DNA of 32,000 nucleotides from Pyrodictium abyssi (GTDB lineage: Archaea > Thermoproteota > Thermoprotei_A > Sulfolobales > Pyrodictiaceae): contig NZ_AP028907.1 in NCBI RefSeq assembly GCF_036323395.1, positions 750,001 through 782,000 of the forward strand. The letters are read 5' to 3'. Position numbers and translations under genes: made by a program. Under the pieces are notes generated by a model. That model made no database searches, was not told the DNA's origin, and was given only the letters and a program-made list of their open reading frames with translations. Positions 2,335 through 24,133 of the stretch are shown here, in pieces. The stretch's first letter is position 1; every line of letters starts with the position of its first letter.

Positions 2335-3351
2335 TCACTGCTCCTCTAACAGGAGGCTTCGAGGCGCTACGTTCTCCTCGAGCCAGCGGGCGAATCGGTG
2401 GTACTCCATTTTGACCAGGTCCTCTAGGCTGATGTAGTTCTCCTCGGTCGTCTTTGTCTTCACGGCGCTGGGGATCTGGATGAGCTCGGCGCCTGGGTCG
2501 TGGCCGCCTACGTGGGCCGCGGCCTGGGGTCCCAGCATCCTCGCTATATGGTGCAGAGAGAACTTCCGGATGTACTTCGGCGCGGGCGCTCCCTTGCCTG
2601 CCGCGTGTTTTGCTAGCTTGTCCCGGCGCGGCGGCCTGTAGCCCTGCTCCACGGCCTTGTTTACCGCCTCGTAGAGCCACCCCGGCATGTAGAAGCCGTA
2701 GACATGTTTATGGCTCTGCCTCTTGCTCTTCGACTGTATGCACCATCTGCGGAACAGCTCGTAGTCGGGCTCCGGGAGGGGGTCGCTTCCCCCGCCCTGT
2801 TCCTCGAGGAACCGCAGATAGTTCCTAAGCGCCAGGACGTGCCACTTATTCAGCTTCATGGTGTATAGGTCCTCTCTCCGAAGCGGCCAGCGGAACTTCC
2901 GGAGATACGATACGTACGTGCCGCAGGTCCTCTCCGGGTTCTTCTCCGGCCAGCCCGGGGGAGCCACTATGCGCAGACAGCCGCCGGCTATAGGCTCGGT
3001 TCGCACTGCTACGCTCCCCCAGTCCCCCAGCAGCCGCAGCACATGCTCCGGCCGGGCAGCCGTGTACAAGAGCACGTAGTAGACGAGGCGATAGCGGGGC
3101 CTAAGCCTGGGAAGACTGGTCCGCACCTGCTCCACCGGAGGGACGTAGCGGTCCTCCCCGCTCTCCGGCACACGCAACGCCTCCATCCTCCTCCACGCCT
3201 CGAGGCTTCCTCCCCAGGCCGCGGCCTGGGGCAGGGACTCGAGGACCACCGGGATCGCTGTACCGTCCTCGAGCACTATCGCGTACCTGCCGTCGGCGAG
3301 CTGGATGAGTCTGCCTAGTTTGGGCTTAGTCTCCAATATGAGCACCCACAT
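2335..3351 (-). CDS. int: tyrosine-recombinase-like integrase
   Basis: 338-aa track ORF near attL. The C-terminal region KYIRKFSLHHIARMLG...AHVGGHDPG...EENYISL resembles box II (R, H/G-H, catalytic Y) of archaeal integrases. TAARPEHVLRL is a possible box I Arg. Assignment is by motif only. Confidence 0.65.
   Translation of the reverse strand: MWVLILETKPKLGRLIQLADGRYAIVLEDGTAIPVVLESLPQAAAWGGSLEAWRRMEALRVPESGEDRYVPPVEQVRTSLPRLRPRYRLVYYVLLYTAARPEHVLRLLGDWGSVAVRTEPIAGGCLRIVAPPGWPEKNPERTCGTYVSYLRKFRWPLRREDLYTMKLNKWHVLALRNYLRFLEEQGGGSDPLPEPDYELFRRWCIQSKSKRQSHKHVYGFYMPGWLYEAVNKAVEQGYRPPRRDKLAKHAAGKGAPAPKYIRKFSLHHIARMLGPQAAAHVGGHDPGAELIQIPSAVKTKTTEENYISLEDLVKMEYHRFARWLEENVAPRSLLLEEQ
3212..3231. repeat. 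20-bp perfect palindrome CCCCAGGCCGCGGCCTGGGG inside the integrase-like ORF
   Basis: Read directly from the sequence. It encodes PQAAAWG on the minus strand. Confidence 0.9.
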
Positions 3352-3412: not shown

Positions 3413-4411
3413 CTAGCTTGGGGTTAGGCCGAGTTGCTCTAGCATGTCGCGTTTCACGTAGAGGGTTGCATTCTTGACTATGAGCTTGTACTTCTGGTTG
3501 TTCCATGGCCGGATCTCTATGTGTGGGAGAAGGCGCTTGACGAGGTAGAGTGCTGCTCCTAGTTGCTGTTTGAGGGTTGCGTGCTCGGCCGCGGCCTGGG
3601 GCCCTACGTGCAGGCGCTTAACGCGCGCCAGCACCGCCTTCCTCCTTGCTACTTCCTCTTCTATGTCCTCGGGCCGCGTGTAGGCCCGGATCAGCCACTT
3701 ACGCCTCTTCATCAGCGCTACGCCGGTGTACAGGCCGCGCAGTATCTGGCCCGGCTCGTCGCTGGTGACCATCGCCGATATCTCGTCCAGCGCCTGTAGC
3801 GCTGCTGAGCCGAGCATCCGGCCTATGACTCGTAGATCCGAGGGCTCGTCGGGGTAGTCCTTGAATATCTTGAGGACGCTGGTCCTACGCACGCTTATAT
3901 CGACGAGCGTGTACACCTGTGCCGTCCATACTATGTGTGTGTAGCCGGTGAAGCCTAGGTTCTCGAGCCGGTGGCGGACCATGACAAGCGCCTTCGTTTG
4001 CTCGACGTTCTCCTGGCTCATCGCCCGGCGCCCATGCATACCCTCCGCTGCTATGACGTCGTCCATGAAGATGTAGAGGTACCAGTAGTCCTGGAGCGGT
4101 AGATCGGCGACAGCATCCAGGACCACCTGCAGCGGCACCTCCTGCGCGTAGACGTACGCTATCCTATCGTCGTCGACCCCGTGGACGTCAAGCAGATACT
4201 GAACGGCCTCCCCGAGCTTCGCCTCGACGAACGACGTCTTGCCGAAACCCATTGGAGCTATAACCAGCGTCGAGCGGAGGAGCTTCGGCACCCTCCTCAC
4301 AGTCTCCGGCTTCGGTGCCACGTAGCGAAGGAACCGCCGCGTATCCCTCCCCGTCTCCTCGCGGACCTCGACACGAGGGATCTCGACGCCCGTGCTCAGC
4401 ACCGTATACAC
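3413..4411 (-). CDS. P-loop NTPase
   Basis: Walker A is APMGFGKTS and Walker B-like is LYIFMDDV, in a 332-aa track ORF. The subfamily cannot be resolved by eye. Confidence 0.7.
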   Translation of the reverse strand: MYTVLSTGVEIPRVEVREETGRDTRRFLRYVAPKPETVRRVPKLLRSTLVIAPMGFGKTSFVEAKLGEAVQYLLDVHGVDDDRIAYVYAQEVPLQVVLDAVADLPLQDYWYLYIFMDDVIAAEGMHGRRAMSQENVEQTKALVMVRHRLENLGFTGYTHIVWTAQVYTLVDISVRRTSVLKIFKDYPDEPSDLRVIGRMLGSAALQALDEISAMVTSDEPGQILRGLYTGVALMKRRKWLIRAYTRPEDIEEEVARRKAVLARVKRLHVGPQAAAEHATLKQQLGAALYLVKRLLPHIEIRPWNNQKYKLIVKNATLYVKRDMLEQLGLTPS

Positions 4412-17069: not shown

Positions 17070-17339
17070 TCAGCTAGGTCCCACCCAGTCGCTCGGCAGG
17101 CGGACGACGCGCACGCCGTTCCCGTTGCCTATGCTGCGCCACTGCCGGAGAAGCCCGGCAGCCATGACCGACTCGCAGCGCCTCGTGCCGAACAGCTCCT
17201 CCTGCACCAGCCTCTTGACAGCCTCCCTCACAGCGTCGCTCCTATGCTTGAACACCCCGCGCCTCACAAGCTCGTCGAGAGCCTCAGCAAGCATCCCCGG
17301 GATCTTGACGACCACCAGCGTACCGCTCACCACGGTCAC
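17070..17339 (-). CDS. ribbon-helix-helix (CopG-like) protein (start uncertain; GTG candidates at 17339, 17333 or 17330)
   Basis: TLVVVKIPGMLAEALDELVRRGVFKHRSDAVREAVKRLVQEEL shows the strand-helix-helix pattern. The N-terminal half of the 176-aa track ORF overlaps the 17336-17590 gene and looks spurious. Confidence 0.55.
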   Translation of the reverse strand: MTVVSGTLVVVKIPGMLAEALDELVRRGVFKHRSDAVREAVKRLVQEELFGTRRCESVMAAGLLRQWRSIGNGNGVRVVRLPSDWVGPS

Positions 17340-17590
17340 CCCCTGCCTAGGTACTCGAGGATGCTCTTCGTGGACGGTGTGATGGCCCTGGGCTTGTACC
17401 GGTAGCACTTGCCCGTGTAGTAGGTCACCGGCCTCCCGTAGGCCGTGCACCATCCTAGGACGCTGTGGCCGACGCGCTCGCCACGCTCTTGGCGCCACTG
17501 GAGCCACTTCTCCGCCTTGATGATCTGCTCCTCGGAGAGCTGGCTCGCCGGGACGAAGTATTCGCACTTCCTGCAGTCCGCCAGCACCAT
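17336..17590 (-). CDS. small Cys-rich (zinc-finger-like) protein
   Basis: 84 aa with CRKCEYF...GWCTAYG...GKCYRYK. Confidence 0.5.
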   Translation of the reverse strand: MVLADCRKCEYFVPASQLSEEQIIKAEKWLQWRQERGERVGHSVLGWCTAYGRPVTYYTGKCYRYKPRAITPSTKSILEYLGRG

Positions 17591-17601
17591 GGCGGCTCAC
17601 C

Positions 17602-19181: not shown

Positions 19182-19601
19182 TCACCTCTCCCTGGTCATC
19201 CTCCTGGTCATTGCGCGTAGCTTCTTGCGAAGCTCGCGGATCTCCCGCAGGTTCTGCTCTATCCGCGCGTCTGCAACCACTATCCTAAGGTGGCGGGCGC
19301 ACTCGCGGAGCCTCCCGGTGAACATGCGGGGTACGCCGTCCTCCTCGAGCCTGCCGGCTAGCCGCTCCAGCCTAGCCGCCAGCTCCTCGTACTCCGCCGG
19401 ACGGGCAGACTCCACCTCGCGGCGCAGCCTGCGCAGAACCCCCGCATACTCGGGGCCCATGTCGCGCTCAAGCCTAGCCAGAGTATCCAGGACGTACACG
19501 ACACGCCAACCCCGAGCCACACCAACCACCCCCGACACGCCTGGGCTTCCCTCGGGGCCCCCGGGGCCGGGGCCCCAGGGACGCGTTGTTTCTAGAAACA
19601 T
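19182..19601 (-). CDS. coiled-coil protein, first gene of the leftward operon (start uncertain)
   Basis: 139-aa track ORF. The annotated ATG lies inside the operator palindrome, so a downstream GTG start or a leaderless mRNA are both possible. The C-terminal part is helical and charged (LRRLRREVESARPAEYEELAARLERLAGRLEE...). Confidence 0.45.
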   Translation of the reverse strand: MFLETTRPWGPGPGGPEGSPGVSGVVGVARGWRVVYVLDTLARLERDMGPEYAGVLRRLRREVESARPAEYEELAARLERLAGRLEEDGVPRMFTGRLRECARHLRIVVADARIEQNLREIRELRKKLRAMTRRMTRER

Positions 19602-19623
19602 ATTTATGTGTTTCTAGAAACAT
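19587..19623. promoter_or_regulatory. bidirectional promoter/operator: two copies of the 14-bp palindrome TGTTTCTAGAAACA flanking an AT-rich TATA-like box
   Basis: TGTTTCTAGAAACAT occurs at 19587-19601 and 19609-19623, 22 bp centre to centre, with ATTTATG between them. The region lies between the divergent gene starts at 19601 (minus) and 19645 (plus). Confidence 0.55.
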
Positions 19624-19644
19624 CCCGGGAGTGGGTGCCTGGGT

Positions 19645-20661
19645 GTGCGGAGGTTCCGTGTCGAGCTGCCGGAGGGCTGCATGTTTGAGGCGACCGGGGT
19701 TGTTTGCAATGATCCTAGGGCCGCCGAGTCCTTCGTGAGGAGCGCACTGTGGGCCGCGGGGCTCGCGGGGATTGATGCCGAGCTTTGCTCTGGCCGCGGC
19801 CGTGACGTGCCGGAGGCCGCCCTAGACCCAGAGCTGGCCAAGCGGATCCTGGAGAAGGTGGCCCATCTCGAGGACGAGAACGCCAAGCTGAGAGCAGAAC
19901 TAGAGACCTGGCGCGAGGTCGGGAGCAAGGTTCTCTCCAGGATCGAGGAGGCCTTGAGGGAGACGGAACTCGCAGAGGAGGCGGGGGAGCTGGCCCGGGA
20001 GCTGGCGCGGCTCCGAGAGGCCTTGGCCCGCGCCCTCTCCTCCCTGGCCGCGGCCGGGGAGGAGATAGAGAAGTGGCGCAGCGCCTGGCTCTGCTACTAC
20101 GTGACACCGCACGAGGAGCCCCTGGCGTTCAAGAGAGAGTACCCGGATGGGCTGCCGAGGCTCGCCAGGGAGAGGCACAAGGAGCTTGCCCGGAGGGTGA
20201 AGGTTCTCCGGGAGCGCTGGTACCGGGAGCTGTGGGGGCTTCCCCTTGTACGCCTCGGCAAGGTCTACATAGCGTTTAGCGAGGCCGCGGCCCGGAGCTT
20301 CATCCGCAAATACGGCGAGATCTTCGAGCCGATAGTCAAGCAGCTCCGCGGCCTGGGCTACAGGACACAGGCAGCCTGCGAGTGTATACCGATACGCATG
20401 CTCCCCGAGCAGGCAGTAGAGTTCCTCCGGAAGGAGATCGAGGAGACTAGGAGGGAGCTGGCGCTCGCGGAGGCGAAGGTGCTAGAGCATAAGGCCGCGG
20501 CCAGAGGAAGCGCGCTACAACACCAGCTCGACAAGATACGCCGGTTGAGGAAGAGGCTCCAGCAGCTCGAGAGCCTGCTACGCCAGCTACAGCGCAGCCA
20601 GCCCAGCGGGGCCCGAAAGCTTCCGGTACTGGCCGCGGCCAGGGGTGAACCGAGGGCTTAA
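19645..20661 (+). CDS. large coiled-coil protein
   Basis: 338-aa track ORF with a GTG start and long E/A/R/L-rich helices. It carries five exact GGCCGCGGCC copies in-frame. Confidence 0.6.
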   Translation: MRRFRVELPEGCMFEATGVVCNDPRAAESFVRSALWAAGLAGIDAELCSGRGRDVPEAALDPELAKRILEKVAHLEDENAKLRAELETWREVGSKVLSRIEEALRETELAEEAGELARELARLREALARALSSLAAAGEEIEKWRSAWLCYYVTPHEEPLAFKREYPDGLPRLARERHKELARRVKVLRERWYRELWGLPLVRLGKVYIAFSEAAARSFIRKYGEIFEPIVKQLRGLGYRTQAACECIPIRMLPEQAVEFLRKEIEETRRELALAEAKVLEHKAAARGSALQHQLDKIRRLRKRLQQLESLLRQLQRSQPSGARKLPVLAAARGEPRA

Positions 20662-21503: not shown

Positions 21504-21688
21504 TCATCCCGGTTCTAGACGCAGCCGGGAGTATGCACCCACTCCTGCTCATTTTCAATTCTTATACCAGGCCGCGGCCCGGTCTCCTTAACAGCCAGCC
21601 TAACGTATTCTCTAGCAAACTATAGGATTCACTGCAGCCGAAGACTTCTGGCTCAGGCCGCGGCCAGAGGCTATATCTAGCCTCTAGT

Positions 21689-21708
21689 CCCCAGGCCGCG
21701 GCCTGGGG
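21689..21708. repeat. 20-bp perfect palindrome CCCCAGGCCGCGGCCTGGGG (identical to 3212-3231), intergenic
   Basis: Read directly from the sequence. Confidence 0.9.
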
Positions 21709-22233
21709 CGGGTGGTTGCAGCACCCACACCTTCGCATGCTCTGAAGGCAGACTATGACAGGTTCGCATTACGGCAGGGTAAACTGATACACGTAGGTTC
21801 AACCAGACCAGAACCTATGCAGTATACGACCCAGCAGTTAGCCCCGGGCCCTTCTGGATTCGAATGAAAGCTGAGCCTCATCGCCTGCCTGCAGGCTAAT
21901 CAGCAGCTCGGAGTCCATCGATCCTATAGAATATAATTATAGAATTTTCTTTCTCTCATAAGCATCTTAGTATGTAGCATTGCGCTGGAGATGTTCTTTC
22001 CCGGGATTCTTTCCCGGCAGCTCCTCTTCCCGCCTCTTCTGCCTGGGCCGCGGCCCGGAGGCGTGGTTGTGAAGAGGTATTACAGCCATATAGGGCTGTG
22101 TGGCGTATGCGGCTACAGGGGGTGAACGGGACGTGGCGGTTGCGGAGGCTTCTGGGCCACAGGCCCTTGCTAGGAGCCTGGCTGAGGCGCTGGACCGGGC
22201 GCTGCCCTGGAGAGAGCCCAGGAGTACTTCGAG

Positions 22234-22647
22234 GTGCTGAGAACCTACCTCGAGAGGAGCGTAGCACTACTAGCCGAGGACTATAAGAAGTATGCCCGGA
22301 TATACTGGGAGACGTTACCCGACTACGTGAAAGCACTAGCCGAGGGCGTCTACCTCTACATATCGAGAACCGCCCTAGACAGTAAGGCTCCCTTTGTCGT
22401 AGAGTATGACGTGCTAAGGGAGTTCATTGAAATGGCTGCTGAGGGCAAGTACTCCAGGCCCAGGGATATACACAGCATAATCAAGAGAAGAATCAGCGAT
22501 CTTGTCCGCCCAGACTCCTACGGCAGAACCCTTGAAGAGATAGGCATAGCGGTTACAGTGGACTCCGGGGGCAAGATAAAGATAAGCGTGGAACCAGATG
22601 TGCTGCTCCGCTTTATGAACAATGTGGACCTCGGCGATATAGGCTAG
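22234..22647 (+). CDS. hypothetical protein
   Basis: 137-aa track ORF with a GTG start and visibly lower GC than its neighbours. No motif recognised. Confidence 0.5.
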   Translation: MLRTYLERSVALLAEDYKKYARIYWETLPDYVKALAEGVYLYISRTALDSKAPFVVEYDVLREFIEMAAEGKYSRPRDIHSIIKRRISDLVRPDSYGRTLEEIGIAVTVDSGGKIKISVEPDVLLRFMNNVDLGDIG

Positions 22648-22703
22648 GTGCTGCTCACGTTTCCCTCCGAAGATGTCGCTCTCCCATGTTCTGCTGCCTG
22701 AAT

Positions 22704-22741
22704 GCGACCTGCATGCGACTCTATAGCGACCGAAAGGCGAC
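22704..22741 (+). repeat. iteron array, four GCGAC(C/T) units spaced exactly 11 bp apart
   Basis: GCGAC occurs at 22704, 22715, 22726 and 22737. 22704-22720 is the exact reverse complement of 22967-22983. Confidence 0.7.
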
Positions 22742-22934
22742 CTAGGAATTGAACATGATTTGTAGGCTGCGAGGGAATGATTCAGCACCTTCAGAGCGGA
22801 ATTCCCGCGCGACCTGTCCCCCTGTACAGACTCTCTCCCGCGCGGGGACCCACACAGACCCGTCTGGAGCGAATTCCATCCCATACTACAGATTACATGA
22901 AAGCTATTCTCTCCGAAGGTGTAGAATCTGATGA

Positions 22935-22983
22935 GTCGCTATCAGGTCGCTATGAGGTCGCGTTTCAGTCGCATGCAGGTCGC
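22935..22983 (-). repeat. iteron array in inverted orientation, five (A/G)GTCGC units spaced exactly 11 bp apart
   Basis: GTCGC occurs at 22935, 22946, 22957, 22968 and 22979. Confidence 0.7.
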
Positions 22984-23015
22984 GCTTATATAGGGGTGGT
23001 TCGCAACCCGAGTCA

Positions 23016-23288
23016 ATGCTCAAGGAGGATGTGTCCGACATAGCCCCGGGCCGCGGCCTGGGCGCTGGCCGCGAAGCTCTTAACAGGAGACGTGGGCATA
23101 TCTCCTGTGGGGAGCGTTGGTCTAGGATCGCCGAGGACCAGCAGGGGTTGTGGCCTGTGTGGCTGCGTGTAGTGGTTCTCGGGGAGGCGGTGGTCTCCGC
23201 GTACTTCGCGGGGATAAGCGCGGCCCTGGCCGCGGCCGCGCTGCTGCTCCCACCGCTGCTCATCTGCCGCATCCCCTCGAAGCGGTAG
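23016..23288 (+). CDS. possible small membrane protein (start uncertain)
   Basis: Only the C-terminal half of the track ORF is protein-like and hydrophobic (VVVLGEAVVSAYFAGISAALAAAALLLPPLLI). Confidence 0.25.
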   Translation: MLKEDVSDIAPGRGLGAGREALNRRRGHISCGERWSRIAEDQQGLWPVWLRVVVLGEAVVSAYFAGISAALAAAALLLPPLLICRIPSKR

Positions 23289-23309
23289 GCACAGGAAGGG
23301 TGGTGGCTC

Positions 23310-23528
23310 TTGCCCCGGGCGAGGCTGGCCGTGGTGGTTGGGATTGCGGCTCCGCTGGTGCTCGCCTATCTCGCCGGCGTGGCCGCGATGGAGGCGGCGG
23401 AGGCTGTACTCGGCGGCGATGTGCTGGGCGCAGCTGTGGCAGCCGTCGCCGAGGCGGTGCTGGCCTGTGCGGCCGCCCTCGCACAGGCCAGGCACGCTCT
23501 AGATCCGTCTGCCCCCGGTAGACGCTAG
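23310..23528 (+). CDS. possible small membrane protein
   Basis: 72-aa track ORF with a TTG start and Ala/Val/Leu-rich helices. It converges on, and overlaps by 30 nt, the minus-strand gene 23499-23717. Confidence 0.3.
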   Translation: MPRARLAVVVGIAAPLVLAYLAGVAAMEAAEAVLGGDVLGAAVAAVAEAVLACAAALAQARHALDPSAPGRR

Positions 23529-23719: not shown

Positions 23720-24007
23720 CTAGGCCGGAGCAGCCGCCGGCGCAGCAGCTTTCTTCCTCGGCCTTAGTACCAGGACCTTCTCGCCGCCACGCCTCTCGAC
23801 ACGCAGCTCAAACTCTATATCATCATCTGGGGTTACGCCTAGTTCCTCTAGCGCTCTAACGGGTATGTGCATTAGAGGATAGTAGTAGCGTTTCCTTCCG
23901 CGCTTAACCGTCCTCCAGCTCGCCTTTACCAGCATTACTTCTCCCTGTGTGTCTCTCTGCCGGGTGTTCTGCTTTGAGGCTTGTGCCATGGCCGCGGCCT
24001 GTGCCAA
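23720..24007 (-). CDS. AbrB/SpoVT-like DNA-binding protein
   Basis: YYYPLMHIPVRALEELGVTPDDDIEFELRVERRGGEKVLVLRP fits the swapped-hairpin pattern. The first codons, ATGGCACAGGCCGCGGCCATGGCA, contain the palindrome. The gene lies 37 bp inside attR. Confidence 0.55.
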   Translation of the reverse strand: MAQAAAMAQASKQNTRQRDTQGEVMLVKASWRTVKRGRKRYYYPLMHIPVRALEELGVTPDDDIEFELRVERRGGEKVLVLRPRKKAAAPAAAPA

Positions 24008-24043
24008 ACCGTATCACCGGTGCGCGGTGGGTGGGGCGGGTTG

Positions 24044-24077
24044 TGGCGCCGGGGGCGGGATTTGAACCCGCGCGGCC
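24044..24077. repeat. attR core (direct repeat)
   Basis: Identical to 1400-1433. Confidence 0.85.
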
Positions 24078-24133
24078 CGGCTGGGGCCACCGGCTCTCCA
24101 GGCCGGCCCCTTGGTCCGCTCGGGCACCCCGGC
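24044..24133 (-). tRNA. tRNA-Ser (anticodon GGA), class II, CCA encoded
   Basis: The reverse complement reads GCCGGGGTGCCCGAGCGGACCAAGGGGCCGGCCTGGAGAGCCGGTGGCCCCAGCCGGGCCGCGCGGGTTCAAATCCCGCCCCCGGCGCCA. The acceptor stem is GCCGGGG/CCCCGGC. The anticodon stem is CCGGC/GCCGG with loop CUGGAGA. The long variable arm is GGCCC-CAGCC-GGGCC. The T arm is GCGGG-TTCAAAT-CCCGC and the discriminator is G. Confidence 0.9.

Follow-up and report, generated by a model that had tools for sequence, protein, structure and literature searches.

What is the function of a 280-bp stretch of Pyrodictium abyssi DNA in which a 6-base motif, repeated at exactly 11 bp, forms two mirror-image rows that face each other across a core? 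The unit occupies positions 22704-22983 of the window, by which we mean the whole stretch of 32,000 nucleotides that was analysed. A first-pass annotation had proposed it as a candidate origin or protein-loading site. The iteron positions, inverted arrangement and 11-bp intervals given there were all confirmed in the sequence, as were the exact inverted repeats formed by the outer 17 nt (22704-22720 and 22967-22983) and an additional GTCGC at 22675. The features of the locus are listed in the table.

Read toward the core, all nine iterons are GCGACY, and a degenerate fifth unit (GCTGC at 22693) extends the left arm. Two spacer types, CTGATA and TGAAAG, alternate to give a 22-bp super-period. 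The pentamer GCGAC alone was not enriched in the window (94 found, 102 expected). The phased pair GCGAC-N6-GCGAC was present seven times against an expectation of 0.15, with all seven copies inside the unit. Likewise, the longest pentamer run at a 9-13 bp period (five copies) fell at the unit, compared with three or fewer in 200 dinucleotide shuffles, and no comparable iteron run was found elsewhere in the 32-kb window. Both P. abyssi arms share one 11-bp lattice, with inner iterons 198 bp apart. As the inner iterons of a homologous unit (L134, described below) are 203 bp apart, the helical phase between arms is not conserved, and a common lattice, absent in L134, was dropped as a conserved feature.

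Table. Features at and around the 280-bp unit, in window coordinates.
Feature	Position	Strand	Remarks
137-aa protein ORF	22207-22647	+	Called start GTG at 22234; homology from 22207; orphan P0028 C-terminal domain
Partial duplicate, TTCCCTCCGAAGATGT + GTCGC	22661-22679		Copy of the sequence preceding the right arm; 14/16 identical to 22907-22922
Left arm	22693-22741	+	GCGACY at 22704, 22715, 22726 and 22737; 11-bp steps; core-facing
Core, 193 bp	22742-22934		Conserved blocks, lower-GC shoulders, GC-rich centre
Right arm	22935-22983	-	GTCGC at 22935, 22946, 22957, 22968 and 22979; five GCGACY; 11-bp steps; core-facing
TATA-box-like CTTATATAG	22985-22993	+	Abuts outermost right iteron (1-bp gap); P. 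abyssi-specific
Two small hydrophobic ORFs	23016-23528 (23016-23288, 23310-23528)	+	Downstream of TATA-like box; gene status uncertain

Judged by its ATPase and gene order, the surrounding element is an integrated P. abyssi virus related to Aeropyrum globular virus 1 (AGV1), which is the only cultured relative of the provirus. The provirus is inserted in tRNA-Ser (window ~1394-24077), where att repeats are found. Its ATPase (3413-4411) is 49% identical to that of AGV1, and its modules follow the order integrase, ATPase, and a divergent block with a trypsin-like protease. The same gene order was found in AGV1 and in four further loci (L124, L125, L130 and L132). Among the other products of the provirus are an RHH protein (17070-17600) and a SpoVT/AbrB protein (23720-24007). 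AGV1 is circular, has no genes in common with Globuloviridae, and yielded no recognisable origin boxes to its authors (bioRxiv 10.1101/2021.04.21.440749). A reading in which the unit joins the two inverted terminal repeats of a linear globulovirus genome was dropped on the first two of these grounds and because the core is only weakly palindromic. Integrase arm sites were likewise dropped, as the unit lies ~1 kb from the att core. A periodic-pentamer scan of the readable parts of AGV1 and eight AGV1-like contigs, most of them cut, found no comparable arrays. AGV1 and the AGV1-like contigs carry other repeat-rich non-coding regions. The P-loop ATPase at 3413-4411, first choice of the first-pass annotation as the partner of the unit, is a poor candidate, being conserved in AGV1-like viruses, in the readable parts of which no unit was found.

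The comparison points instead to the 137-aa protein (22234-22647), which had also been named as a partner and whose ORF ends 56 bp upstream of the unit. When 1.84 billion representative proteins were searched with phmmer, it matched only itself and residues 626-753 of P0028, a 759-aa P-loop protein encoded by elements that carry an integrase in other archaeal metagenome-assembled genomes (MAGs). Alignment by tblastn placed P0028 residues 615-753 on window positions 22207-22629 at 49% identity. The rest of P0028 had no tblastn match in the window, such that the N-terminal 614 residues are missing. Homology continues past the called start up to an in-frame stop, located eight codons upstream of 22207. 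A match between a 338-aa ORF and P0028 residues 562-613 (E = 0.15) was treated as noise. The protein library searched by phmmer contained no full-length P0028 homologue from P. abyssi, which makes origin firing unlikely in this organism. An exact look-up of the 137-aa protein matched no contig, and locus searches with a 209-aa protein, the ATPase, an ATPase alignment and a P0028 alignment gave no confirmed relatives.

P0028 itself matched no family in Pfam, NCBIfam, PHROG, PADLOC or PDB, the best match being BrxL_ATPase at E 0.12. It contains the motifs NVGKST, ALQIEG and PIILTGN, separated by ~44 and ~43 residues, and our reading of this spacing suggests an initiator or helicase. We regard P0028, whose P-loop ATPase is central, as the type example of a family of mobile-element proteins that has not been described before. 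An AlphaFold model of P0028, built from a three-sequence alignment, gave pLDDT values of 73-89 for residues 648-754, arranged in the order helix-helix-helix-beta-hairpin. Foldseek returned no significant match for the model; its compact matches were winged-helix proteins at E 0.4 or worse. Modelled from its sequence alone, the 137-aa protein gave no usable structure (pLDDT 47). The C-terminal domain of P0028 and the 137-aa protein probably adopt a winged-helix-like fold, as predicted from the P0028 model, and the 137-aa protein is a candidate iteron-binding protein.

A homologous unit lies behind the same domain in other archaeal elements, starting 66-69 bp after the stop of the P0028 gene (L134-136) or the P0029 gene (L137). 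Across the three genomes, the unit begins 56-69 bp after a homologous stop codon. The homologous units have 3-5 iterons per arm at exact 11-bp spacing and a ~195-bp core with collinear conserved blocks. All 15 of the iteron intervals in the three genomes are exactly 11 bp; these are the only three versions of the unit that were found, one of them truncated where its contig ends. Information content is ~2 bits at iteron positions 1, 2, 4 and 5 and ~1 bit at positions 3 and 6, compared with 0.14-0.58 bits in the spacers. Symmetry between arms follows the same division. Pentamers match at 20 of 20 and 15 of 15 positions, and spacers at 8-13 of 24 and 7 of 18.

The third position includes a natural variant, with all six L134 arm iterons reading GCTAC where P. 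abyssi and L137 read GCGAC. L134 and L137 are otherwise close, with adjacent coding DNA that is 95% identical and proteins that differ at 13 amino acids in the last 430 residues, 4 of which fall within residues 687-739 of the C-terminal domain. However, the counterpart of a solitary internal GCGACCTGT in L134 is still GCGAC, so the arm-wide G-to-T change could reflect homogenisation of the array and not a change in binding specificity.

The domain and the unit are the only part that the P. abyssi element has in common with the P0028 loci. The L134 element consists of an integrase, an HTH regulator, a 58-aa protein (AbrB-like in our reading), P0028, and the unit, followed by 400 bp at 35% GC; P0028 is its only large enzyme. 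Neither the element nor the unit matched phage records by megablast or blastn, and the right-arm and left-arm patterns had no match in IMG/VR. In JGI metagenomes, the right-arm pattern matched one bacterial coding sequence three times and no homologue. The generic pattern of four GCGAC-N6 repeats recovered more than 120 unrelated tandem-repeat loci from IMG/VR, a subset of which were marine-phage-like contigs with inverted arrays of different iterons.

Conservation extends into the core. Global alignment of the P. abyssi and L134 cores gave z ~5.4, with none of 1000 shuffles scoring as well, and nine collinear 7-mers were common to both (0.38 expected). Blocks common to the homologue are GAATTGAACAT (22746-22756), GGAATTC(C) (22798-22805), CGCGACCTGT (22808-22817), GAATTCC (22871-22877) and TCTGATGA (22927-22934), and the solitary GCGACCTGT lies at 22809-22817. 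The GGAATTC/GAATTCC pair, which includes both half-sites noted in the first pass (GGAATTCC and GAATTCC), is centred on the dyad axis. The central palindrome reported there, CCCGCGCGGG, is also present, but at 22837-22846, one base to the left of the position given. The shoulders (22740-22769 and 22870-22929) have a GC content of 0.37-0.47, compared with 0.63-0.73 at the core centre, and the shoulders beside the L134 arms fall to 0.30-0.33. Thus both cores combine a nested dyad with lower-GC shoulders. At 52% GC overall, the P. abyssi core is not a classic unwinding element.

The unit is non-coding. ORFs overlapping it do not show the distribution of GC over codon positions that marks real genes in the window, and their exact sequences are absent from a protein collection that includes the annotated neighbour genes, which upholds the earlier judgement that they are spurious. 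No conserved peptide was found in the unit by tblastx. Beyond the right arm, the centre of CTTATATAG lies ~27 nt upstream of an ATG at 23016, which we take, from the general promoter rule, to be the distance expected for a leaderless archaeal mRNA. No TATA-like box is present at the corresponding place in the right flank of L134. The two ORFs downstream of CTTATATAG, which this promoter would serve, have plausible codon-position GC, and their exact sequences are not in the protein collection.

Taken together, our data suggest that the unit is a cis-acting docking, loading or origin-type site of the P0028 family, present in P. abyssi as a relic or an operator. We assign this reading a probability of about 45%. 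A docking site for the P0028-type domain is the most likely role because the unit follows the same domain in two other archaeal elements. In addition, with information confined to GC(G/T)ACY and not the spacers, an RNA stem or a MITE is a poorer fit than repeated binding of a protein. Indirect support for a role of the C-terminal domain as the binder comes from its co-inheritance with the site, from the winged-helix-like model, and from the amino-acid changes that cluster in it where the iteron differs. The C-terminal domain would bind one GC(G/T)ACY iteron per 11 bp, building a phased protein array on each arm. With the arms inverted, two oppositely oriented arrays would bracket the core, whose lower-GC shoulders and central palindrome may receive the ATPase part. 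Most likely this would start replication, the unit being an iteron-type origin that directly follows the gene of its initiator. The AGV1-like provirus of P. abyssi would have taken in no more than the DNA-binding domain and the site. There, the module could not be fired by a resident full-length protein and would be a recent relic or a repressor-operator pair, the latter suggested by the contact between the outermost right iteron and the TATA box. Hence the original proposal of a protein-loading site or origin is strengthened by the co-travelling domain, the 15/15 phasing and the 6-nt information; origin function stays a prediction from sequence.

Several known systems share parts of this architecture. 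In iteron-type plasmid origins (F RepE, R6K pi, pPS10 RepA), iterons of 19-22 bp lie next to the rep gene. As in these origins, the phased repeats of the unit adjoin the gene of their presumed binder, here in three genomes, and evolve in concert, and their alternating spacers give a 22-bp super-period. Stretches of lower GC lie alongside, within a P. abyssi core that is 52% GC overall. In contrast, the specific part of the unit is 6 nt per 11 bp, its arms are inverted around a conserved 195-bp core, and P0028 is a 759-aa P-loop ATPase without Rep_3-type similarity from an archaeal, hyperthermophilic host. At archaeal oriC, inverted ORBs surround an unwinding element and are bound by the winged helix of Orc1/Cdc6. 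The unit similarly has inverted elements flanking a lower-GC region and an adjacent ATPase gene with a predicted winged-helix-like C-terminus, but its iterons are short and phased where ORBs are boxes of 20-35 bp. The ORB pattern TTCCAGTGGAAAC, allowing up to three mismatches, was found five times in the window (3.8 expected) and not at all in 22648-23015. Neighbouring ORFs and P0028 had no orc1/cdc6 match in Pfam, and P0028 matched no AAA+ family. The polyomavirus core origin contains inverted sets of GAGGC pentanucleotides, to which a ring helicase binds through its origin-binding domain. Pentanucleotides, inverted sets, dyad symmetry and a central palindrome recur in the unit, a symmetry which would imply loading of two opposed complexes. 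However, the unit spans 280 bp compared with 64 bp, copy number and spacing differ, and there is no sequence homology or detectable protein homology.

A precedent is offered by pRN1 of Sulfolobus, whose replicase ORF904 has primase-polymerase and helicase domains, unlike P0028, which had no family match in any library searched (Pfam, PHROG, PDB). In pRN1, the replicase gene orf904 is followed directly on its 3' side by the origin, a stem-loop (PMC4234260, PMC3869888), and specific binding of ORF904 to this origin was not detected (PMC4234260). Both pRN1 and the P0028-type elements are crenarchaeal mobile elements that place a long inverted repeat immediately downstream of the gene for a large P-loop protein, with an architecture that is kept as the sequence diverges. 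The pRN1 stem-loop is continuous over 100 nt and has no phased iterons. The arms of the unit could pair over 45 nt at 71-80%, enclosing ~195 nt, with spacers that are not complementary.

One alternative is that in P. abyssi the unit is a functionless relic, a truncated gene and site imported so recently that decay has not begun. We consider this doubtful. In its favour, in addition to the missing N-terminal 614 residues, the homology that runs past the called start to an in-frame stop, and the lack of a full-length P. abyssi homologue in the library, the patch differs in composition (GC 0.51-0.56 compared with 0.62-0.65; third-codon-position GC 0.64 compared with ~0.80) and is devoid of the GGCCGCGGCC motif, which is scattered over the remainder of the element. 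On the other hand, all nine iterons and the outer 17-nt inverted repeat are perfect, the ORF is intact across the whole domain, and the end of the imported fragment coincides exactly with that of the unit. All of these features would also be expected if a domain-plus-site pair had been retained for function. Another alternative, which we judge unlikely, is a purely transcriptional operator with no role in replication, at which a repressor (the 137-aa protein, or an RHH or AbrB-like protein) would control an adjacent promoter, with looping between the arms. The right iteron that ends 1 bp before a good TATA box, itself ~27 nt upstream of the ATG, is consistent with such an operator, as are a TATA-like AATATAAAAG after the left arm in L134 and L137 and the RHH and SpoVT/AbrB proteins encoded by the element. 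There is also a precedent in the archaeal virus SSV1, whose RHH repressor F55 binds tandem ATAGATAG repeats at early promoters (PMC5569661). As in that temperate archaeal virus, the unit places short tandem repeats by BRE/TATA elements, with the P. abyssi right arm abutting a TATA-like box. F55 sites, however, have two repeats each and are spread over several promoters, compared with 4-5 repeats per arm, a single locus and a conserved core in the unit. Moreover, the two lineages have their TATA-like boxes on opposite sides, neither box being conserved, L134 has no gene beyond the right arm, the promoter region of the P0028 operon has no GCTAC array, and an operator would not need the conserved 195-bp core.

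The remaining alternatives assign the unit to other kinds of DNA or RNA element. A partition centromere, in which an adaptor on the iterons couples an episome to a segregation ATPase, is improbable. In plasmid R1 parC, two sets of five 11-bp iterons flank a promoter, with one ParR dimer bound per iteron (PMC2241845). The unit is close to this in copy number and period, having two clusters of about five 11-bp iterons with a promoter-like element beside them. Yet the parC repeats are all direct with a 39-bp spacer, compared with inverted arms and a conserved spacer of 193-198 bp, and they work with ParR (ribbon-helix-helix) and the actin-like ParM. No parR (RHH), parM or other partition NTPase gene lies beside the unit in the window, L134 or L137, nor does a ParA or TubZ-like gene adjoin it in the three genomes, and the ATPase of the element itself belongs to the AGV1-like viruses, in whose readable parts no unit was found. 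Some DNA pumps carry a C-terminal recognition domain, as in FtsK-gamma with KOPS and Streptomyces TraB with clt repeats, and in TraB/clt a C-terminal winged helix reads short repeats just behind its own gene. By analogy, the unit might be where a DNA translocase or packaging motor is loaded or recognises its DNA, with P0028 as the pump. The placement of repeats behind the P0028 gene is reminiscent of TraB/clt, no family match fixes the class of the P0028 ATPase, and unrelated marine phage contigs have inverted 11-bp iteron arrays beside a gene read as the small terminase. We nevertheless find this reading quite improbable, as directional motors use repeats in one orientation, the unit is dyad-symmetric, and neither capsid nor conjugation genes were seen in the 7 kb read of the L134 element. 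A structured non-coding RNA or 3'-UTR structure, with ends paired through the arms, had been raised in the first-pass annotation and now appears very improbable. Both strands fold far better than shuffles (z -5.0 and -4.5), the L134 left-arm G-to-T change is matched by a right-arm C-to-A that scores as compensatory, and the core has conserved blocks. But Rfam 15 gave no match (to E = 10 for the window unit and E = 1 for L134), pairing is conserved in the pentamers and not the spacers, and RNAalifold gave only short, weak helices in the core. A stem would not explain why the same pentamer recurs at exactly 11 nt, and a transcript from the TATA-like box inside the left arm of L134 and L137 would lack that arm. 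A C/D-box RNA was dropped, as TCTGATGA is present without a matching box arrangement. The least probable reading, to which we give very little weight, is a MITE or pair of transposon ends with multiple transposase-binding sites; the MITE had been named earlier as an alternative. Its length of ~280 bp and its terminal inverted repeats, built of sub-terminal repeats, are as such an element would have. However, the unit is single-copy in the window and in each compared locus, its flanks show no target-site duplication (...CCTGAAT / GCTTATA... in the window, CATAGT / TATGTA in L134), and its place after the homologous stop codon is fixed in three genomes. The terminal-repeat pattern, searched in species-representative genomes that evidently exclude P. 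abyssi, was absent from the archaeal ones and gave only two chance bacterial matches.

In a further, decidedly unlikely scenario, the provirus captured only the DNA-binding domain and cognate site from the replication module of a foreign element and turns the pair against that element or exploits it, with an incompatibility or exclusion device or a satellite-like origin fired by a helper as the result. In the former case, P0028-type elements entering the cell would find their iterons covered by the orphan domain and so could not replicate. As a satellite-like origin, the site would fire only in the presence of a full-length helper element.

Hardly anything is known of how replication begins, at which origins and with which initiators, in the viruses and integrated plasmids that hyperthermophilic Crenarchaeota carry. 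The unit offers a concrete pair, a 6-nt iteron and a small domain, and also points to a new family of 759-aa ATPases. The natural variation between GCGAC and GCTAC, accompanied by few amino-acid changes, could reveal how iteron specificity evolves. To our knowledge, genetic tools are lacking at present for Pyrodictiaceae and Desulfurococcales, and shuttle vectors for both could be developed from the unit should it prove to be an origin.

The 280-bp unit at 22704-22983 carries two inverted arms of iterons, all nine of which read GCGACY, around a core. GCGAC by itself was not enriched in the window (94 observed; 102 expected). The spaced form GCGAC-N6-GCGAC occurred seven times, always inside the unit (0.15 expected). 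Pentamer runs at a 9-13-bp period reached four and five in the window, while no pentamer gave a run of four or more in 200 dinucleotide shuffles. The phased arrays proposed in the first-pass annotation are confirmed at the same positions, far above shuffles. Its exact 17-nt terminal inverted repeats, an extra GTCGC at 22675, and the half-sites GGAATTCC (22798) and GAATTCC (22871) were likewise recovered. The 10-bp palindrome CCCGCGCGGG is present at 22837-22846, one base from where it had been placed. ORFs called over the unit, already regarded as spurious, did not show the distribution of GC over codon positions that genuine Pyrodictium abyssi genes have (~0.63/0.42/0.80), and their exact sequences were absent from a protein collection containing the annotated neighbours.

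The left arm begins 56 bp after a 137-aa ORF (22234-22647). Among 1.84 billion representative proteins, its only distant relative was the segment 626-753 of P0028, a 759-aa P-loop protein. By tblastn, P0028 residues 615-753 matched window 22207-22629 at 49% identity, beginning ahead of the called GTG start, right after an in-frame stop codon. Because homology is confined to these residues and the remainder of P0028 had no match in the window, sequence comparison identifies the ORF as an orphan C-terminal domain of the P0028 type.

P0028 is encoded in an integrase-bearing element from archaeal MAGs (locus L134), following an integrase, an HTH regulator, and a 58-aa protein that we take, by its sequence, to be AbrB-like. 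It contains a Walker A motif (NVGKST), ALQIEG after ~44 residues, and PIILTGN after a further ~43, a spacing presumably characteristic of SF3- and AAA+-type ring ATPases. The only library hint was BrxL_ATPase (E = 0.12); all other family and structure library searches with P0028 were empty. The AlphaFold model of residues 648-754 (pLDDT 73-89) shows three helices followed by a beta-hairpin. Its compact Foldseek matches, none significant, were winged-helix proteins (the Cdt1 C-terminal domain, ArsR-family regulators, and STIV F93). A relative at locus L137, P0029, is 79% identical to P0028. The pair (L134 2201-4480; L137 937-3219) is mosaic, with ~60% identity over the N-terminal 330 aa and 97% over the C-terminal 430 aa (coding DNA, 60% and 95%), which points to recombination inside the gene.

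A homologous unit starts 66 bp after the P0028 stop codon. Core alignment between P. abyssi and L134 gave z ~5.4, equalled by none of 1000 shuffles, and the cores have nine collinear 7-mers in common (0.38 expected). In both, the dyad axis is the centre of the GGAATTC/GAATTCC pair, lower-GC shoulders lie beside the arms, and the core holds a central palindrome, of differing sequence. At L137, conserved GAATTGAATATAAAAG follows the left arm before the contig ends. The L134 and L137 arms differ in copy number (3 vs 5) and in pentamer. By tblastx, domain and unit were the only common part of the P. abyssi and L134 elements. Separately, L134 has TAGTC/CTAGTCTAG repeats at 1900-1930, in the common promoter region of the HTH regulator and the 58-aa protein/P0028 operon; these are a candidate separate operator, unrelated to the GCTAC iterons.

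Coordinates and composition of the unit, its relatives, and the surrounding provirus
Feature	Position	Strand	Details
Left-arm iterons	22704, 22715, 22726, 22737	+	GCGAC
Right-arm iterons	22935, 22946, 22957, 22968, 22979	-	complement GTCGC
TATA-like box	22985-22993		abuts outermost right-arm iterons; centre ~27 nt upstream of ATG 23016
Core blocks, P. abyssi and L134			GAATTGAAYAT, GGAATTC, CGCGACCTGT, GAATTCC, TCTGATG
L134 unit	4547, 4558, 4569; 4772, 4783, 4794		GCTAC; 198-nt core; GTAGC
L137 left arm			GCGAC, GCGAA, GCGAC, GCGAC, GCGAC; 11-bp spacing; behind P0029 gene
Integrase	2335-3351		intact; inside provirus
att sites	1394-1458 and 24038-24133		direct repeats; tRNA-Ser(GGA) 3' part duplicated
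tRNA-Ser(GGA)	24044-24133	-	

Information over 20 iterons is concentrated in GC(G/T)ACY, with spacers at 0.14-0.58 bits per position. Each of the 15 intervals measures exactly 11 bp, and between arms the pentamers are perfectly symmetrical, the spacers only 33-54%. Both features would be explained if a protein bound repeatedly, with one module at every helical turn. An RNA or single-stranded DNA stem would constrain the spacers as well and would not need identical pentamers at each turn, which argues for protein binding. Although adjacent coding DNA differs by 5% between L134 and L137, all six L134 arm iterons have T at position 3. The last 430 residues of P0028 and P0029 differ at 13 positions, four of them within residues 687-739. 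From this pentamer change, these differences, and the winged-helix-like model, we infer that the P0028-type C-terminal domain reads the iterons. Alternatively, the arm-wide change may reflect array homogenisation instead of altered binding specificity, since the solitary internal GCGACCTGT in L134 is still GCGAC.

About 1 kb separates the unit, which sits in a lower-GC patch, from the right att site. The att direct repeats bound a 22.6-kb integrated element and include a 40-nt repeat (1394-1433 and 24038-24077; 98% identical) copying the 3' part of tRNA-Ser(GGA). We assign this element as an AGV1-like provirus, because its P-loop ATPase (3413-4411) shares 49% identity with that of Aeropyrum globular virus 1 (AGV1) and its modules follow an order, from integrase through ATPase to a divergent block including a trypsin-like protease, that recurs in AGV1 and several MAG/metagenome contigs. 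The study describing AGV1 recovered no origin recognition boxes and proposed an origin, from GC skew, at the inverted repeat separating ORF1 and ORF34 (bioRxiv 10.1101/2021.04.21.440749). Each of the AGV1-like genomes contains a non-coding region rich in repeats, whose motifs are particular to the lineage. L130 (10100-10900) and L131 (3050-3800) carry five or more GTTAC-N8-GTAAC palindromes as well as TCTCTAAAAAGAGA and CAGAGTCAGAGTCTG; AGV1 (L123, 8790-8945) carries four TGTTAACA and, after its RHH gene, a 16-bp tandem repeat.

Other features of the provirus were recorded. The window contains 34 copies of the 10-bp palindrome GGCCGCGGCC, often in the longer form CCAGGCCGCGGCCTGG (0.28 copies expected). 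All but one site (30887) lie in the provirus (1557-23999; ~1 per 680 bp), in all three reading frames and non-coding DNA, with none in the patch 22207-22990. The palindrome was absent from AGV1 and, among the other AGV1-like loci, found only in L125 and L127, once each. Packaging/condensation signal, methylation target, and recombination signal are candidate roles. A 37-nt imperfect palindrome with two ATGTTTCTAGAAACAT at 19567-19642 fills a divergent intergenic region (19182-19601, minus; 19645-20661, plus) and is likely an operator or bidirectional promoter region. No convincing ORF lies in the lower-GC stretch 21504-22233 (~730 bp). It includes three GGCCGCGGCC sites, is AT-rich at 21920-21960 (CTATAGAATATAATTATAGAATTTTC), and may contain a promoter or unannotated RNA. 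The ORF at 12996-13439 matches the PIN domain only weakly (E = 4e-4, which falls short of the Pfam cut-off) and may form a toxin-antitoxin pair with small ORFs just upstream.

Several other identities were weighed for the unit. A structured RNA fits less well: both strands fold well (z -5.0 and -4.5), but there was no Rfam match and the core consensus structure is weak. A MITE is opposed by the single copy in the window and compared loci, the lack of a target-site duplication at the unit flanks, and its constant position behind the end of the same gene. A centromere, a translocase or packaging site, and a pure operator are less likely readings, as each fits fewer features. Plasmid R1 parC has similar arm geometry, with five 11-bp iterons in each of its two sets (PMC2241845), but differs in orientation, spacer, and partner genes. 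Inverted 11-bp iteron arrays also occur in marine-phage-like IMG/VR contigs (L011, L017, L025, L026, L066, L084, L107; 38-42% GC), with the same geometry but unrelated sequence. In these contigs, as at L026 2095-2235, four GGGGGTCGCAA are followed after ~60 bp by four or five TGCGACCCCCT, and the arrays point outwards. The ORFs flanking the phage-contig arrays are presumably a PD-(D/E)XK-like nuclease and a small terminase.

An iteron-type origin is the best fit, because the gene of a large ATPase with a predicted C-terminal DNA-reading domain is followed directly by inverted arrays of phased putative recognition sites around a dyad core whose shoulders would melt easily, and, in L134, by an extra 400 bp at 35% GC. 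The closest experimental crenarchaeal precedent is pRN1, whose origin lies directly 3' of orf904 (PMC4234260, PMC3869888). No full-length P0028 homologue was found in the protein library for P. abyssi SPECIFICALLY, and the unit patch has a foreign base composition. The P. abyssi copy would be a recent relic, or else domain and site would have been re-used together. Re-use is suggested by the TATA-like box abutting the right arm, an arrangement not conserved in L134. The origin or protein-loading site originally proposed is partly supported by the three-genome comparison, which points to a conserved, putative protein-docking site tied to one specific domain and most probably of origin type. Elements of this kind are essentially uncharacterised in this group of organisms.
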